In this document: positions 21,475 through 28,185 of the stretch, in pieces
Position numbering within the stretch: the stretch's first letter is position 1
Layout: every line of letters starts with the position of its first letter
NCBI GenBank assembly: GCA_017445365.1
Contig: JAFSUH010000175.1
Span: 1 to 53,839 of the forward strand
Reading direction: 5' to 3'
Source of the DNA: Kiritimatiellia bacterium
Lineage (GTDB): Bacteria; Verrucomicrobiota; Kiritimatiellia; CAIQIC01; Lenti-01
DNA: 53,839 nucleotides
Made by a program: the position numbers and the translations under genes
Notes under the pieces: generated by a model
Databases searched by the model: none
The model's input: the letters and a program-made list of their open reading frames with translations, nothing else
What the model was told of the DNA's origin: nothing

Positions 21475-22329
21475 TCACGCATCCGCCGTCGGTTCCCATG
21501 CGCCGGACGGAAGGAGTTGCAAGTCTTTGACGAGACGCCGTGCCTTGTGCCGGAAGGCCGGTCTTTCGGCCTCGTGGAAGCGTTTCATGCCTAGTTCCAG
21601 AAATGCGGCCGATTGGTCGATGCCGAAAAACTTCCGCCCCAACAACCGCGCCGCGATGCCGGTCGTGCAGGAACCCGCGAAGGGGTCGAGAACCCAATCC
21701 CCCTCCTTCGTGGAAGCGAGGAGGATGCGGACGAGGAGCGAAAGCGGTTTTTGCGTGGGATGCTTGCCGAACGTCTTTTCCCAGCGGCCGATGGCGGCCA
21801 GCGGCCACACGTCGCGCATCTGTTTCCCGCCCGCCAGTTTGCGCATGAGGGAGTAGTTGAAAAAATGCGGCGTTTTCGCTTCGCGCCGCGCCCAGATCAC
21901 GAACTCGGCCGAATGCGTGAAATAGCGGCAGGAAAGGTTGGGCGGCGGATTCGTCTTCTGCCAGACGACGACGTTCAGGATTTTGTAGCCGAGTCCGGCA
22001 AGCGCGTTGGCGGTTTGGAACGTGTTGTGGTGCGTGCCGCTGATCCACACCGTTCCGGACGGCTTGAGGATGCGGCGCAACGCTTCGAGCCACCGGCGCG
22101 CGAAGGCGGCGTCCGCCTCCCCGCCGCGCGATTTGTCCCAGTCGCCCTTGTCCACGCAGACCTGCCGCCCGCTTTGCACGGAGATTCCGCCGTTGGAAAG
22201 GAAATACGGCGGATCGGCGAACGCGCAATCGAACTGGAACCCCTTCCGGGCGATTTCCTCCATCCACTCGACGCAATCGCCGCACCCGAGCGCCCAGCGC
22301 GCGTCGGGCGATTTGAAAAAGGGTTGCAT
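21475..22329 (-). CDS. beta-class N6-adenine (or N4-cytosine) DNA methyltransferase, second methylase of the RM cassette
   Basis: DPPY (FADPPYFL) precedes the AdoMet motif DPFAGSCTTG. The ATG overlaps the endonuclease stop (TGATG). Confidence 0.85.
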   Translation of the reverse strand: MQPFFKSPDARWALGCGDCVEWMEEIARKGFQFDCAFADPPYFLSNGGISVQSGRQVCVDKGDWDKSRGGEADAAFARRWLEALRRILKPSGTVWISGTHHNTFQTANALAGLGYKILNVVVWQKTNPPPNLSCRYFTHSAEFVIWARREAKTPHFFNYSLMRKLAGGKQMRDVWPLAAIGRWEKTFGKHPTQKPLSLLVRILLASTKEGDWVLDPFAGSCTTGIAARLLGRKFFGIDQSAAFLELGMKRFHEAERPAFRHKARRLVKDLQLLPSGAWEPTADA

Positions 22330-23252
22330 CACGGCGAGAGAATCTCCCCGAGGATGCCGGTCAGCAGGTTCTTCCCGCGGACGGCGGCGAGATTGAGGAG
22401 GTAGTCGGCTTTCTGGCAATACTCCCGCAGGGGCGCTTGCGTTCCCTTCCATCCGTAGCCGTCGGTGATCCAGAGGAATTCCACGCGCCGTTGCCGGGAA
22501 TACCGCTTGAACATTTCGCAGTATTCGGTTGCCGTTGATTTCAGTTTCGACCCGCCGCCGCCGTAGAAATTCGTTTCCAGGAGGAACAGGCGGTCGTCCC
22601 GGAAAATCGCGAAATCGACGCGGCGCTCGGATTTGTCCATTTGCAGGTCGAAGTCCCAATGCGCCTTGATCTTGGCCTTGGTCGCCTGCGCCATGTAGTC
22701 GGCGTGCAACGCCTCCGCCGTTTCCACGACGAAATTCTCGACGAGCGATTCCATCAGGTCTCCCGAGCGGTTCTTGCGCGCGTTGCTGTCGAGCCCGACC
22801 TCGATTCCGAAGTAGTAGTCCGGAATGCTCTTGACCTTCCGGTCGGCGAGGATGTCCAGAAGCCCGCTCTGCCGGAGGAAGCGGACGCACGAGGCGATGT
22901 CGGCCGCGGAAGGCGCACGCCCCTCGAAATCGAAGCGTTTGACGAGGAGTTTTTTCGCATCCACCATGACGTCGAAAGAGTGCTCGCGGGAGGCAAGAAG
23001 CAACGGCATCACGCGGAGGACTTTCGGATAGTCGGCGATGAGCGATGACAAATCGCGCTCGATGTCCTCGGATCCCACGAGCGTGTCGAGCAGGGCCAAT
23101 TCCCGGACGTGCGGTGCCACGTTTGCCTTTACGCGGTTCCAATCCACGAACCAATCGCTCCGGTGGATGGTCGGAATGAGCGTGTCGATGAGGAAGCGGA
23201 AGGATTCGTCCTCGTTCCGGCATCCGAGGAGGGCCGTTTCGATCGGGTTCAT
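22329..23252 (-). CDS. DpnII/MboI-family type II restriction endonuclease (GATC-type by family)
   Basis: 307 aa. Layout and segments (FGIEVGLDSNARKNRSG, DFAIF...LLETNFYGGGGSK) recalled from the DpnII family. Sandwiched between two methylases with overlapping start/stop codons. Confidence 0.75.
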   Translation of the reverse strand: MNPIETALLGCRNEDESFRFLIDTLIPTIHRSDWFVDWNRVKANVAPHVRELALLDTLVGSEDIERDLSSLIADYPKVLRVMPLLLASREHSFDVMVDAKKLLVKRFDFEGRAPSAADIASCVRFLRQSGLLDILADRKVKSIPDYYFGIEVGLDSNARKNRSGDLMESLVENFVVETAEALHADYMAQATKAKIKAHWDFDLQMDKSERRVDFAIFRDDRLFLLETNFYGGGGSKLKSTATEYCEMFKRYSRQRRVEFLWITDGYGWKGTQAPLREYCQKADYLLNLAAVRGKNLLTGILGEILSP

Positions 23253-24169
23253 GAGGGGACTCCGTTCGTGAAATTGGAGACAAGGATTTCGCCGAGTTTT
23301 CCGCGCCTGTCCGCCTTCGCGTTGACCATTCGCGAAGCCTGGACGCCTCGGATGTCGAATCCGGCGTAGAGTCCGTCGAAAAAGGTGTCGCCGGGGTCCG
23401 TCCCTTTCGGGTCGGAATTGCTGAGGAGCCAGCGGACGCCTTTGCGGTCCAAGGTGCGGCAAACGTCGGCGAGGCGGTGTTGCTCCCTGTCGTCGAAGCC
23501 GCCTTGCGTGTAATCGCGGAACCCCGACGTGGCCGAAATCGGCCGGTAGGGCGGATCGAAATAAACAAACCAATCCGGCCCGGCCCCGGCAAGGGCATCC
23601 GCGAAGTCGCCGTCGAGGATTTCGACTCCCGCAAGCGCCGCCGAGTCGGCCAGCAACGTTTCCCGGTCGCAAATCCGCGGATTCGCGTAGCGTCCGAAAG
23701 GGACGTTGAACGCACCTTTCGCGTTCACCCGGTAAAGCCCGTTGAAGCAGGTGCGGTTGAGAAAGAGCATTCGGGCCGTCCGCCGGACGGGATTGTCCGC
23801 GCAATCGGCAATGGCGGCGTTGTAGGCGTCGCGCACGGCAAGGTAGAACGCGCGGCGGTCCTCCTCTCCGGTTCGGGCGCGGTAGTCCGTTTGAAGTTCA
23901 TCCAAGGCTTCGACCAGTTCGGCGGCATGCGATTGGACAACCCGCCAGGCATTCGCGAGATCGGGATTCGAATCGTTGACAACGACCCGTTCCGGGCGGA
24001 GACCCTTGGCGAGAAGATGGAACAGCAACGCCCCGCCGCCGACGAACGGCTCCGCATAGACACGGACCGTCCTCTTGAAATCCTCCGGCAACCGGGCATC
24101 CAGTTCTGGGAGCAGTTGCGTTTTCCCGCCAGCCCATTTGATGAATGGTTTTATCGTCTCTCGTTTCAT
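23249..24169 (-). CDS. dam: Dam-family (alpha-class) DNA adenine methyltransferase
   Basis: IKWAGGKTQLLPEL, EPFVGGGALLF (FxGxG) before FDPPYRP (DPPY). The stop overlaps the endonuclease ATG (ATGA). Confidence 0.9.
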   Translation of the reverse strand: MKRETIKPFIKWAGGKTQLLPELDARLPEDFKRTVRVYAEPFVGGGALLFHLLAKGLRPERVVVNDSNPDLANAWRVVQSHAAELVEALDELQTDYRARTGEEDRRAFYLAVRDAYNAAIADCADNPVRRTARMLFLNRTCFNGLYRVNAKGAFNVPFGRYANPRICDRETLLADSAALAGVEILDGDFADALAGAGPDWFVYFDPPYRPISATSGFRDYTQGGFDDREQHRLADVCRTLDRKGVRWLLSNSDPKGTDPGDTFFDGLYAGFDIRGVQASRMVNAKADRRGKLGEILVSNFTNGVPS

Positions 24170-24260
24170 GCTCGCGATGCGTCCTGCATCGCGGCGGACA
24201 TGGAGAGACGAAAAAGCGCGTTCTCGAATCCATGCCCTCCTCGGAAGCCCTACCACAGGC

Positions 24261-24320
24261 TGATCAGATTACACGGAGAGAACGCGCCCGGAGGGGCGCG
24301 TCTGCTGATGAATCTGATCA
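24261..24320. promoter_or_regulatory. nested inverted repeat with two GATC sites upstream of the RM operon
   Basis: tgatcagat (24261-24269) and atctgatca (24312-24320) flank the GC hairpin gcgccc-ggag-gggcgc. Lies 90-150 nt upstream of the dam start. Confidence 0.3.
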
Positions 24321-24494
24321 AAGCCGCAGGCTTCAATCGGTACGACGGAAGGAAACGTGTGGTAGTATTTCCGAGGAGGCGTCGTTTAGCAGATCGCTAA
24401 AAGGTTGGATTGTTCAAGGCGGGATGCTGGGTGGGAACGGTTCTCCGTGGGGGTGGATTTCCTGCGCGGCGGATGCCGCGGAACGATGGAATCA

Positions 24495-24780
24495 CTTTGC
24501 CAAAAGCCCCCGCCCCCGGCAAGAATCCTTCCGTTGCCGGTTCCGGTTTTGCCAAACATTGGCAAATCCCAAAATGGTAAGGTGAGCCGTTCTCCAGTCC
24601 CGCTGGTTCCGCCCATCCCTTCCCAATCCTTGGGGGGTGCGGGGGTTTCCCCCGTCCGTTGTCATGCGCCGCGCATGCGCGGCGCCAAATCGAACCCCGC
24701 CAAAGGTGCCAACCCCCATTTTGCCAATGTTTGGAAAAAACGCCCTGAATTTGCCAAACATTGGCAACCCCTCCCCACCA
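24495..24780. repeat. array A6: TTTGCCAA-N3-TTGGCAAA units (3 good, 1 degenerate) plus a G5/C5 hairpin
   Basis: Units at 24547, 24729 and 24759 (30 bp apart). Degenerate unit at 24495. ggggggtgcgggggtttcccccgtccgttgtc at about 24633. Confidence 0.8.
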
Positions 24781-25810
24781 TTTCCCAGCCACTCCAAAAA
24801 CTGTCTTTTCAGTATCCGCGAAGCGGTTTCAATGTCCCACCCCTTTGCGGACCTCGCGCACTTTGCGCGAGCTTTTTCCCTTCCCCTCTCCCAAGCCCGA
24901 CAATCCTGCATTTCCTGTCGGAACCTTCTCTTTTCAATATCCGCTTTTATGGCCTTCATAGTCTCCGTTTCCCGCCCTTGTGTATTCTGCCTTGTGGATT
25001 GTCCATTGCCTTCCTGCTCCTGTCCGAAAGGCTTCTCCATTGAAAGCCCACGGACGCTTCAATGGTTTTCAATGTCTCCGTGACTCTCATTCTCCGTTTC
25101 CTCCGTGTTTGCAAACTGCATGATTGCGAAACCAATCAATCCCCGCCCCCTTTCCTCCCCAAATCCTTCGCATTCATTGTCCCCTCCTCTCTCCCCCCCC
25201 TCATTCCACCAATTTTCCTCTCCAACACACAAGGCACTATGTCACATAAATCTCTATATCGCTGTTTCTTCGCGTGGGCATTGTTTGCCATCCCTGCGAC
25301 ATCGTGGTCGAATCGCCCCAACGGAGGGAATGCCCCGTCTGCACGAAGGATGCGTTTGGAATCGATCTTCTCCAACTCGTCGGGGACGCAAGTTGCGCCC
25401 CGTAGAAATCACTTGACACGATTCCCGCGCCCTGATGTCCGCGCTTTCCTCCGGGACGACCTCGCATCCGGCCTGCCATCGGAAGTGTACGAGTCCCCCT
25501 CTCCGACTGTGTCTCCGTCCGCAACATCCGCTCTTTCCGATTTTGAGAACACCCCACAACGAGCCTCTGGCCTCGCTAGCGTTCCCCTCCCCTGCGCGAG
25601 TCTTCTTGCTCTTTTTCTCCGTTTTACCCTCCAATCCGCCCGTTTTCCGCCGGAAGGTGAAAAGCCGTTTTGGCAAGTATTCATGCGGTCGAAATGCAGA
25701 TTTTGCATCCAAAAGAACTCCGCCAGAATCGAAAAATGCAAAATGAGTCGTGTTCTTGCCCGTGAATTCCGCTTTTTTGAAACGGCTTTTCTCCCTCTTT
25801 TTCGCCTCTT

Positions 25811-25864
25811 GAAACAAAATATATTATTTTAAGATTTATGCGACAAAGTATTTTATAAAATCGT
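25811..25864. other. AT-rich island (10 G/C in 54 nt); candidate DNA-unwinding element or divergent promoter
   Basis: gaaacaaaatatattattttaagatttatgcgacaaagtattttataaaatcgt in an otherwise GC-rich genome. Lies at the point where the plus strand switches from C-rich to G-rich. Confidence 0.35.
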
Positions 25865-26193
25865 TACCCCTTCCCCACCCTTTCGAACGAATCGGTCAAG
25901 GTCGGTGACGGTCCGGGGCCGGGACGGAGAGTCGGGATGGGCGAAGCGGGATGGCGGGAATCTTCGGAGGATTCCAATCCGTCTTGCACGGAAGGAATCC
26001 TGGTCTCTGTTCCGTGAGAGTGATTCCCTTCCCTCCAAGGAACGAGGCTTGTGGGTATCGGTTGGACACAGGGAAGCAGGGCGAGCAAAAGAAAGAATGA
26101 CAGAAGGAGCGGGAAAACGCTTGAAGGAACGGGAGGGCTTCCCTACCCTCCCGTTGCGCGGATTGCGGAAGTTGCGCGAAAACAAGGATTTCC

Positions 26194-28185
26194 ATGACAA
26201 ATCTTTCCAAAACAGGGTTCGATATCGTCGTCGTCGGGGCCGGACATGCCGGTTGCGAGGCAGCCTTGGCAGCGGCGCGGATGGGTGCCGATACCGCCTT
26301 GATTTCCTTCTCGATCGAGGCGGCGGCGCGGATGAGCTGCAATCCCTCCATCGGAGGAATCGCCAAGTCCCACATGGTTTTCGAGTTGGATGCGCTGGGA
26401 GGGGAGATGGCCCGCAACACGGATGCGACCGGCCTCCAGTTCCGCGTGCTCAACACCCGGAAAGGCCCCGCCGTCCAGGCAAACCGCGCCCAATGCGACA
26501 AGGCCGCCTATGCCGCACGCATGGTGCATGTCCTCCGCGCAACGGCGAATCTGGCGCTTTTGGAAGACGATGTGACCGGCGTGCTTGTCGAAAACGACTG
26601 CATCACAGGCGTGAGGACTCTCCATCATGGCAATCTCTCCGCCAAGAAAGTAATCCTGACGGCGGGGACCTTTCTCAAAGGACGGATTTTCGTGGGAAAG
26701 GATTGCACGCCGGGCGGTCGCATCGGGGAAGATTCGGAAGAAACCTTGAGTGGACAGTTGAAGGACATCGGCTTTGAGGTGTCTCGCATGAAGACAGGAA
26801 CGCCCCCCCGCCTCAAGAAGGAATCCCTGCATTACGACAAGATGGTGCGGCAGGACGGTTTCAATCCGCCCCCGTTCTTCAGTTTCGAGGCGCGGGAAGC
26901 GGTCGATGCGCTTGTTCCACGTGGAACATTGAACGACGTATTTCCTGTCCCGCACGCCAGTAACGGAGATTCGACGCGCCTGGCGGAATCTCCTGTTCCA
27001 CGTGGAACATCGGAAAATGATTTCGCTCGCACGGCCCCGTTTTCCGGGATTTCTTTCGGTGTTTTGCCGTTTTCCCATTGGAAACCGGGGAGTGGTGAAA
27101 TGCCGTGTTTCCTGACGCACACAACGCCGAAAACGATGGAGATCATCCGCTCGCACCTCAAAGATTCCGCTCTTTACGGCGGTCTGATCGAGGTTGGAAG
27201 TCCGCGTTATTGTCCTTCCATCGAGGACAAGGTCGTCAAGTTCCCCGGGCGGGAAGAACACCACGTTTTCATCGAGCCGGAAGGGCGGGATGCCCCGCAA
27301 ATTTATCCGAACGGAACAAGCAACAGTCTTCCCTTGAATATCCAAGTGGAAATGATTCACAGCATCCCGGGTCTGGAGGATGCCGAGTTTTTCGCGCCGG
27401 GGTACGCCATCGAGTACGATTTCTTTCCTCCGACGCAGTTGCGACACTCCCTAGAAACAAAAAAAGTTGAAGGTCTGTATTTTGCTGGGCAGATCAACGG
27501 AACGACCGGATACGAGGAAGCCGCGGTGCAGGGATTCATGGCCGGCGTCAACGCCGCCCGTAGCATCGGGGGATTGCCACCGCTCGTCTTCGCCCGACAC
27601 GAGGCCTACATCGGAGTTTTGATTGACGACTTGGTGACCAAGGGGACCAATGAGCCATACCGGATGTTCACCTCCCGGGCGGAACACCGCCTGCTTCTCC
27701 GGCAGGACAACGCCATTTTCCGATTGCGGAATGCCGCCAAGGAAATCGGCATCGTGGACAAGGGCAAAATCGCGAAAATCCAAGAATTCTTGAGGGAAAT
27801 CGACGAAACGAAAAATCGTTTGCACCACACGAAATCCGGCGGGATAACGATTGCAAAACGCATACTTCAATCAAATACTGATTATGCGACTATGCGGGAA
27901 ATCGGGGCGCTTCCGTCTTTCGTGCGGCAGGAGGTGCTGTTTTCGTTGCGGTATGCCGGATACATCGAGCGGGAGGAGCGGAAAATCGCTTCTGCCCGGA
28001 ATCTGGAAGAAACCGCGATTCCCCAAACCTTCGATTTCATGTCTCTGGCGGCGTTGCGCTACGAGGCGCGGGAGAAGCTTTCGGCCATCCGCCCGGCGAC
28101 CTTGGGCCAGGCTTCCCGCATCTCGGGTGTCACCCCTGCCGACATCGCCATTCTCGCCGTCTGGCTCAAACGCGCCGGAACCTGA
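26194..28185 (+). CDS. mnmG: tRNA uridine 5-carboxymethylaminomethyl modification enzyme MnmG (GidA), with a lineage-specific insertion
   Basis: DIVVVGAGHAGCEAA, MSCNPSIGGIAKSH, KTGTPPR, GPRYCPSIEDK-type (SPRYCPSIEDK), GQINGTTGYEEAA, PYRMFTSRAEHRL, GQASRISGVTPADI. Confidence 0.95.
   Translation: MTNLSKTGFDIVVVGAGHAGCEAALAAARMGADTALISFSIEAAARMSCNPSIGGIAKSHMVFELDALGGEMARNTDATGLQFRVLNTRKGPAVQANRAQCDKAAYAARMVHVLRATANLALLEDDVTGVLVENDCITGVRTLHHGNLSAKKVILTAGTFLKGRIFVGKDCTPGGRIGEDSEETLSGQLKDIGFEVSRMKTGTPPRLKKESLHYDKMVRQDGFNPPPFFSFEAREAVDALVPRGTLNDVFPVPHASNGDSTRLAESPVPRGTSENDFARTAPFSGISFGVLPFSHWKPGSGEMPCFLTHTTPKTMEIIRSHLKDSALYGGLIEVGSPRYCPSIEDKVVKFPGREEHHVFIEPEGRDAPQIYPNGTSNSLPLNIQVEMIHSIPGLEDAEFFAPGYAIEYDFFPPTQLRHSLETKKVEGLYFAGQINGTTGYEEAAVQGFMAGVNAARSIGGLPPLVFARHEAYIGVLIDDLVTKGTNEPYRMFTSRAEHRLLLRQDNAIFRLRNAAKEIGIVDKGKIAKIQEFLREIDETKNRLHHTKSGGITIAKRILQSNTDYATMREIGALPSFVRQEVLFSLRYAGYIEREERKIASARNLEETAIPQTFDFMSLAALRYEAREKLSAIRPATLGQASRISGVTPADIAILAVWLKRAGT
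26913..26928. promoter_or_regulatory. parS: parS-type centromere site 1 (TGTTCCACGTGGAACA)
   Basis: Perfect 16-bp palindrome. 15/16 match to the chromosomal parS consensus TGTTNCACGTGAAACA. Confidence 0.7.
26994..27009. promoter_or_regulatory. parS: parS-type centromere site 2 (TGTTCCACGTGGAACA)
   Basis: Identical 16-mer 81 bp downstream of site 1. Confidence 0.7.

Follow-up and report, generated by a model that had tools for sequence, protein, structure and literature searches.

The DNA analysed here, referred to as the window, is a stretch of 53,839 nucleotides (positions 1 to 53,839) of contig JAFSUH010000175.1 (C108) from GCA_017445365.1 (G000), the assembly of a Kiritimatiellia bacterium. 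The assembly amounts to 2.33 Mb in 248 contigs and is approximately 66% complete, with 34% of the genome unassembled. The region of interest is the spacer at 24170-26193, which on the basis of Pfam matches lies between a DpnII-type restriction-modification (RM) operon on its left, on the minus strand, and mnmG (gidA) on its right, on the plus strand. A preliminary description proposed this spacer as a candidate chromosomal origin of replication (oriC). The present analysis indicates that it is probably a lineage-specific non-coding repeat mosaic that carries a structured leader RNA, rather than a chromosomal origin. The features of the locus are as follows.

23249 to 24169, minus strand: gene for a D12-class (Dam-like) N6-adenine DNA methyltransferase, the first of the RM operon (Pfam MethyltransfD12, 1.3e-54).
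24150 to 24215, minus strand: helix CGUCUCUC/GAGAGACG with the hairpin CGCGAUGC-AGGAC-GCAUCGCG, enclosing the start codon of the methyltransferase gene (inverted repeat and minimum-free-energy fold).
24170 to 24535, minus strand as proposed below: predicted structured leader RNA element of about 360 nt, with a covariance-model core at 24202-24396.
24548 to 24767, no strand assigned: three copies (24548, 24720 and 24750) of the palindrome TTTGCCAA-N3-TTGGCAAA, the last two 30 bp apart.
24751 to 25301, no strand assigned: pyrimidine-rich (C-rich) tract with a plus-strand GC skew, in 200-nt windows, of down to -0.56.
24800 to 24885, plus strand: module of about 80 nt with a terminator-like hairpin, CTCGCGCA-CTT-TGCGCGAG, followed by a T-run (24853-24871), from a terminator scan.
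25062 to 25832, plus strand: orphan open reading frame (ORF) of 256 aa, called by gene finders and judged to be non-coding (GC at codon positions 1/2/3 of 0.52/0.50/0.54; no Pfam match).
25811 to 25864, no strand assigned: AT-rich island, 81% A+T, with 10 G/C in 54 nt.
25865 to 26193, plus strand: G-rich, unique sequence directly before mnmG (skew +0.1 to +0.3).
26194 to 28185, plus strand: mnmG, with two parS sites inside it (Pfam GIDA, 7e-146).

The identities of the flanking genes, a Dam-like methyltransferase and a DpnII endonuclease to the left and mnmG to the right, were all confirmed with Pfam. In the gene calls, the RM operon (21475-24169) begins with the D12 methylase and continues with the DpnII endonuclease and a second methylase, of the N6_N4 type. 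The leader has as its 3' end the ATG of the D12 methylase gene (24169-24167). The nearest relatives of this mnmG are found in Kiritimatiellia metagenome-assembled genomes (MAGs). Contigs from three other samples are colinear with the window and 99.9% identical to it, making four assemblies in all, and these near-identical sequences have no comparative power. Collections of plasmid and phage sequences contained nothing similar to the DNA under study.

The spacer is non-coding. It had been noted that no ORF between the RM genes and mnmG looks like a protein, and this is borne out by the flat GC content of the spacer ORFs at codon positions 1, 2 and 3 (0.52/0.52/0.53, compared with approximately 0.6/0.4-0.47/0.7-0.8 in the flanking genes), by the lack of a Pfam match to any of them and by the lack of a homologue for the largest, the 256 aa orphan, which matched only itself among 5.8 billion proteins. 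A 197-aa ORF compared with that protein collection likewise gave nothing but a self-match. Gene calling based on GC3 is unreliable within this window.

The leader element occupies the part of the spacer next to the methylase gene. Using 24164-24535 as the reference, eight full copies are present in this genome, sharing 70-75% identity, along with fragments. The leader repeats evidently break the assembly, and there may therefore be more than eight copies in reality. Contigs C7, C74 and C89 end at or just past a leader copy, with C7 breaking within one, and C7 and C74 have an identical edge. Beyond this genome, the RNA is present in three other genera. By the covariance model of the core, genomes of genus g6 have three to seven copies each and genus g2 has a single strong one, and relatives of only about 165 nt, with the same helices, extend to other genera and to one additional family.

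The copies share an architecture made up of a long hairpin in three tiers (P2/P3/P4), a side hairpin and two 3' hairpins, ending at the start codon. In the consensus of 19 sequences from four genera there are 51 base pairs, 25 of which show compensatory changes. Overall, 95% of the cells in this consensus are paired, as against 82% in shuffled alignments, none of 500 of which equalled the real one, and 33-45% after sliding of the partners. The copy in the window has a fold z-score of -8.0 on the gene-sense strand, that of the downstream gene. Helix P3 is a GATC-bearing inverted repeat at 24261-24320 in this copy; other copies differ in sequence there and the GATC sites are therefore incidental. 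Neither the window nor the loci of relatives produced an Rfam match at the gathering score. With E-values of up to 5 the leader was still unmatched, and the spacer gave only chance matches to microRNA models, at the palindromes and at 24985-25073. Scans of the same DNA for tRNA and tmRNA returned nothing.

The position of the element is as constant as its structure. A long ORF starts at or beside the conserved ATG in 9 of the 19 copies, and a gene on the same strand follows the other copies that have enough flanking sequence. Five of the downstream genes encode DNA methyltransferases confirmed by Pfam (D12, N6_Mtase, HsdM, EcoRI-type and N6_N4). Other downstream products include an XRE-type helix-turn-helix protein, a giant BspA-type leucine-rich repeat (LRR) protein, FGE-sulfatase lipoproteins, polytopic membrane proteins, an 825-aa protein with an NPPY motif and two orthologous proteins of about 500 aa with signal-peptide-like N-termini. 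Genes for a polytopic membrane protein and for a member of the FGE-sulfatase family recur between leader copies. Contig C65 of this genome and contig C97 of G005, which belongs to a different genus, have both kept the RNA together with an orthologous downstream gene for a membrane protein. A conserved CCAUGC, present in many copies, has two alternative pairing partners, an upstream GCAUGG and the GCAUGG of the start codon. The element thus has two properties of a cis-acting leader, namely a structure backed by covariation and a constant position and orientation 5' of coding genes, and its predicted role is that of a cis-acting regulatory RNA. A search of the literature for RNA motifs ahead of RM genes found nothing relevant.

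The remainder of the left part of the spacer is also repetitive. Comparison of the spacer with its own genome by blastn shows that 24164-24941 is composed of repeat modules shared with numerous intergenic regions elsewhere; the sequence from 25112 onward has no second copy in the genome. The palindrome TTTGCCAA-N3-TTGGCAAA has 340 strict copies genome-wide, 93 as pairs 30 bp apart, and is absent from 40 relatives. Being high-copy, clustered and lineage-specific, it resembles the repetitive extragenic palindromes and bacterial interspersed mosaic elements (REP/BIME) of other bacteria. The module at 24800-24885 has 25 nhmmer matches in the genome and blastn matches on more than 20 contigs. A pair of repeated words pointed out previously in this region was recovered in the form of 16-mers, TCTTTTCA(G/A)TATCCGC, at 24804 and 24929. 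Intergenic repeat families are unusually numerous in this genome, a further one being seen at C109:4820-5080 (L045) and near position 470 of C19, where one copy reads AAAGTTTCCCGCAGAGACGCAAGAGCCGCAGAGAGTTTCGACAGGATTTTCAGGAT, in tandem.

Of 27 relatives, 24 have mnmE immediately before mnmG, with a spacer of just 8-152 bp. In this genome mnmE is apart from mnmG, at positions 33-1052 of C11, on the edge of a 2-kb contig. The gene that follows mnmE on C11 differs from mnmG, its product having a signal-peptide-like N-terminus. A remnant of mnmE was looked for inside the spacer (24170-26193) and none was present. No DNA similar to 25100-26193 was found in any genome of the family. The synteny of the origin-region genes mnmE, mnmG, dnaA and dnaN is scattered over at least ten contigs in this genome.

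The base composition of the right part of the spacer was one basis for the suggestion of an origin, and the counts themselves were exact upon recounting: 10 G/C within the 54 nt of the AT island, 36 C against 3 G at 25141-25200 and 33 G against 11 C at 25901-25960. The island is a rare feature. It contains the single A/T-only run of at least 16 nt in the 2.3-Mb assembly (25816-25832) and is one of three loci in 2.3 Mb where a 54-nt window has 10 or fewer G/C. Its 81% A+T content is that of the AT-rich DNA-unwinding element of an oriC. On the minus strand it also has a sigma-70-like promoter, TTGTCG and TATATT separated by 17 nt (25846-25818), as a consensus match only. The simplest reading is that the island would be a promoter or a site for an architectural protein. 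It was also considered by eye as a dif-like site and rejected as such, the XerC arm fitting poorly and parS adjoining it. An inverted pair of ATTTTGCAT (ATGCAGATTTTGCAT ... AAATGCAAAAT) at 25697-25749, some 70-110 bp left of the island, may be an operator.

The change from C-rich to G-rich sequence across the island had been interpreted as the polarity expected at an origin. The skew of -0.56 in the C-rich tract is among the most extreme 0.3% of windows, yet the tract is only 1 of 43 such loci with an absolute skew of 0.45 or more. The 43 tracts, with absolute skews of 0.45 to 0.82, are spread genome-wide, for example at C42:18901-19251 and C222:13501-13851. A general tendency for C-rich leaders to be present upstream of genes was considered as the source of the skew, and no such trend was observed. 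The G-rich side of the flip is modest, with a skew that peaks at approximately +0.3. This side, 25865-26193, has no second copy in the genome and none in the family, and is presumably the 5' untranslated and promoter region of mnmG. The cumulative skew of the window has no turn at 25.8 kb. The flip is probably local, formed by a pyrimidine-rich spacer beside the G-rich region upstream of mnmG, rather than a replichore boundary.

In bacteria of the E. coli type the oriC adjoins gidA/mnmG and in most bacteria it is linked to dnaA-dnaN. The preliminary description drew upon the first of these arrangements, and that part of its argument which concerns mnmG stands. The two parS sites that it placed 0.7-0.8 kb into the gene were found as perfect TGTTCCACGTGGAACA palindromes, one 719 nt into mnmG (26913-26928) and the other 800 nt into it (26994-27009), and are the sole two in the assembly. 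There are also parS sites inside mnmG in G031, G032, G004 and G006. In four genomes of the same family (G013, G017, G009 and G021), a single contig carries both mnmG and dnaA, separated by 6-8 kb. The cumulative skew of the 316 kb contig C28 of G013 (L054) is sharply V-shaped, with its minimum at 250.5 kb, the junction of mnmE and mnmG, where the two genes are separated by about 70 bp. In G004 the minimum of the cumulative skew is also at mnmG. The proximity of mnmG to dnaA in the four relatives and the position of the skew minimum in G013 and G004 therefore identify mnmG as an origin-proximal marker in this Kiritimatiellia family.

The part of the argument that probably does not stand is that the spacer itself is the oriC. 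As the preliminary description had itself cautioned, the spacer contains no DnaA boxes (TTATCCACA-like) with one mismatch or fewer; a box scan of 24170-26193 found three with two mismatches in 2 kb. This amounts to a score of 0-2 per 500 bp, which is background in a genome where the mean is 0.45 and the 95th percentile is 2. The variant TGTTGACAA, found near dnaA, is absent from the spacer. This genome shares its DnaA domain IV motif, NHATVLHA, with G013, where dnaA is accompanied by canonical boxes, and canonical boxes are therefore to be expected here. In G013 these boxes flank dnaA, with two upstream of the gene (258011-258022) and four within the 165 bp between dnaA and dnaN (259597-259761). 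The skew turn in G013 is 7-9 kb from the dnaA boxes, and the intervening DNA already has a positive skew. G031 belongs to another family of the same order; its mnmG, which carries the parS pair, is 110 kb from dnaA, and it is at dnaA that both the skew minimum and a four-box cluster are found.

The positions of dnaA and dnaN had been recommended as a check. These genes are on contigs C185 and C96, neither of which is the contig of mnmG. Their flanks were tried as alternative origins and have no boxes except two TGTTGACAA repeats. These are direct repeats 11 bp apart at C185:25140-25159, with the start codon of dnaA approximately 55-70 bp downstream, and each overlaps a perfect TTGACA (-35-like) hexamer. 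They may act in autoregulation as degenerate DnaA boxes, or may simply be -35 elements. The best window for boxes genome-wide, on C116 at 15.6 kb, was rejected as an origin, being low-GC coding DNA. The cumulative skew of the window is still falling to the right of mnmG and is strongly negative over a low-GC glycan locus on the minus strand. Across the 248 contigs the skew is weak and unimodal, so skew cannot decide the origin question in this genome. A literature search on the origins of Kiritimatiellaeota found nothing relevant.

There is a case to be made that the spacer is nevertheless the chromosomal oriC or a part of it, in which the AT island unwinds, DnaA makes use of degenerate or unrecognised boxes and the parS sites load ParB alongside. 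As in origins of the E. coli and dnaA-dnaN types, the DNA is non-coding, is beside mnmG, has an AT-rich element that is unique in the assembly and has parS nearby, 1.1 kb away. Relatives in the family have their skew minimum at mnmG and dnaA 6-8 kb off. Origin-type sites can adjoin mnmG in this class, since a perfect DnaA box is present at -120 in a 1.7-kb gap upstream of mnmG in L011 (contig C9 of G006) and two perfect boxes are present just downstream of mnmG in L012. Nor is there a better candidate in the assembled two-thirds of the genome. We nonetheless consider it unlikely that the spacer is the origin. It has no box of one mismatch or fewer and no TGTTGACAA, and its two-mismatch boxes are at background. 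It is unconserved, being a derived insertion with repeats in its left part, its dnaA and dnaN are on other contigs, and no replichore-scale turn in skew is seen, the negative skew to the right of mnmG being the opposite of that expected beside an origin. The DnaA of this genome shares its domain IV motif with that of G013, and the box clusters of G013 and G031 adjoin dnaA, as does the skew minimum in G031, not mnmG. The 34% of the genome that is unassembled also counts against settling upon the spacer.

With regard to the element next to the methylase gene, we infer that the strand of the leader RNA is the minus, gene-sense strand. With 19 sequences, 11 of them from other genera, this strand outscores the antisense, with alifold energies of -61.5 and -49.5 kcal/mol respectively. 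Many exchanges of A-U for G-U within the leader pair on the gene-sense strand only. The conservation begins exactly at the ATG of the neighbouring gene, same-strand genes follow the copies, and an orthologous pair of RNA and gene is kept between genera.

It has also to be considered that the element of about 360 nt could be an invertible promoter (inverton), its 20-bp arms at 24236-24257 and 24358-24379 serving as recombinase sites to turn RM and surface genes on and off. Like the invertons of gut bacteria, it has inverted repeats and is upstream of RM and surface-protein genes; RM methylases, BspA-type LRR proteins and membrane proteins are a classic phase-variable repertoire. The arms flank approximately 100 nt, and arms that match one another would likewise mimic covariation. 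However, the three nested helices and the side hairpins all covary, for which an inverton has no need, and the A-U to G-U exchanges indicate pairing in RNA. In addition, the four independent assemblies have the element in one orientation, and no recombinase gene was seen beside the leader copies. An inverton is considered unlikely. That the element is instead an independent small RNA gene, located on the plus strand and transcribed divergently from the methylase gene, is given little weight: a fold of eight sequences (covariation term of -4.7 versus -2.2, with invariant G-U pairs) and the good folding of that strand (z-score of -6.8) speak for it, but the 19 sequences score the gene-sense strand higher, conservation that starts at the start codon of the gene would put the promoter inside unrelated coding sequences, and the RNA and an orthologous downstream gene are adjacent across genera.

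Some observations weigh against the interpretation of the spacer as a repeat mosaic with a leader RNA. The unique AT island beside a parS-bearing mnmG, together with a skew minimum at mnmG in the family, has the look of an unwinding element and of an origin that has been relocated. Of the 66% of the genome that is assembled, with the flanks of dnaA and dnaN, no window has three or more boxes with one mismatch or fewer, and no cluster of boxes points to an origin elsewhere. The leader folds well on both strands, the -8.0 of the gene-sense strand being accompanied by -6.8 on the antisense, and the helices common to both folds contain practically the same number of G-U (11) as of A-C cells (12). 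The helix at the start codon has no support from covariation.

Structured cis-regulatory 5' leaders are known in other bacteria as the expression platforms of riboswitches and as the leaders of processive antitermination, such as the EAR element of Bacillus. The element described here resembles these in having a covarying structure directly upstream of genes on the same strand, with the start codon in a helix, and in having several paralogous copies per genome before envelope-related and accessory operons. It differs in that it has no Rfam match and is predicted from sequence here, and in that its downstream set is dominated by RM DNA methyltransferases; we know of no leader family of the riboswitch or EAR type with such targets. 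The left part of the spacer is also comparable to REP/BIME, BOX, ERIC and Correia repeats, which are likewise short, high-copy palindromic or hairpin modules that form lineage-specific intergenic mosaics. The palindrome differs from these in being AT-rich, similar to a protein-binding site and phased at a fixed 30 bp. The 360-nt element differs from them in being rich in compensatory changes, which suggests selection upon its structure rather than recent copying. From the invertons of gut bacteria it is set apart by its nested covarying helices, its single orientation in four assemblies and the lack of an adjacent recombinase among the copies inspected.

Taken as a repeat mosaic with a leader RNA, the spacer would have arisen as a derived insertion when the ancestral junction of mnmE and mnmG was broken. 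A minus-strand 5' leader of approximately 360 nt would end at the start codon of the Dam-like methylase gene and hold this codon in a local helix, which may allow it to control translation of the RM operon or elongation of its transcript. Next outward from the leader would come the REP/BIME-like palindromes and then the terminator-like repeat module, followed by about 1 kb of unique pyrimidine-rich spacer, the 54-nt AT island and the G-rich region upstream of mnmG. It is possible, and we put this forward tentatively, that the element of about 360 nt and its relatives of about 165 nt constitute an undescribed class of leader through which the RM methyltransferases and surface or envelope genes of Kiritimatiellia come under a shared post-transcriptional switch. 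To our knowledge, no leader common to RM methyltransferases and surface-protein genes has been described.

For annotation, this locus is a caution that an AT island and a local flip in skew beside mnmG are insufficient to call an oriC. Here the origin-proximal context is real, yet the spacer is probably a recent repeat mosaic. The mnmG that bears parS marks the origin region in this family and helps to orient fragmented MAGs. The more useful by-product is a well-supported family of structured RNA that has no match in Rfam and that numbers 4 to 8 copies per genome in three of its genera. If it is regulatory, the leader would provide a handle on coordinated defence and surface variation in an uncultured gut or rumen lineage.

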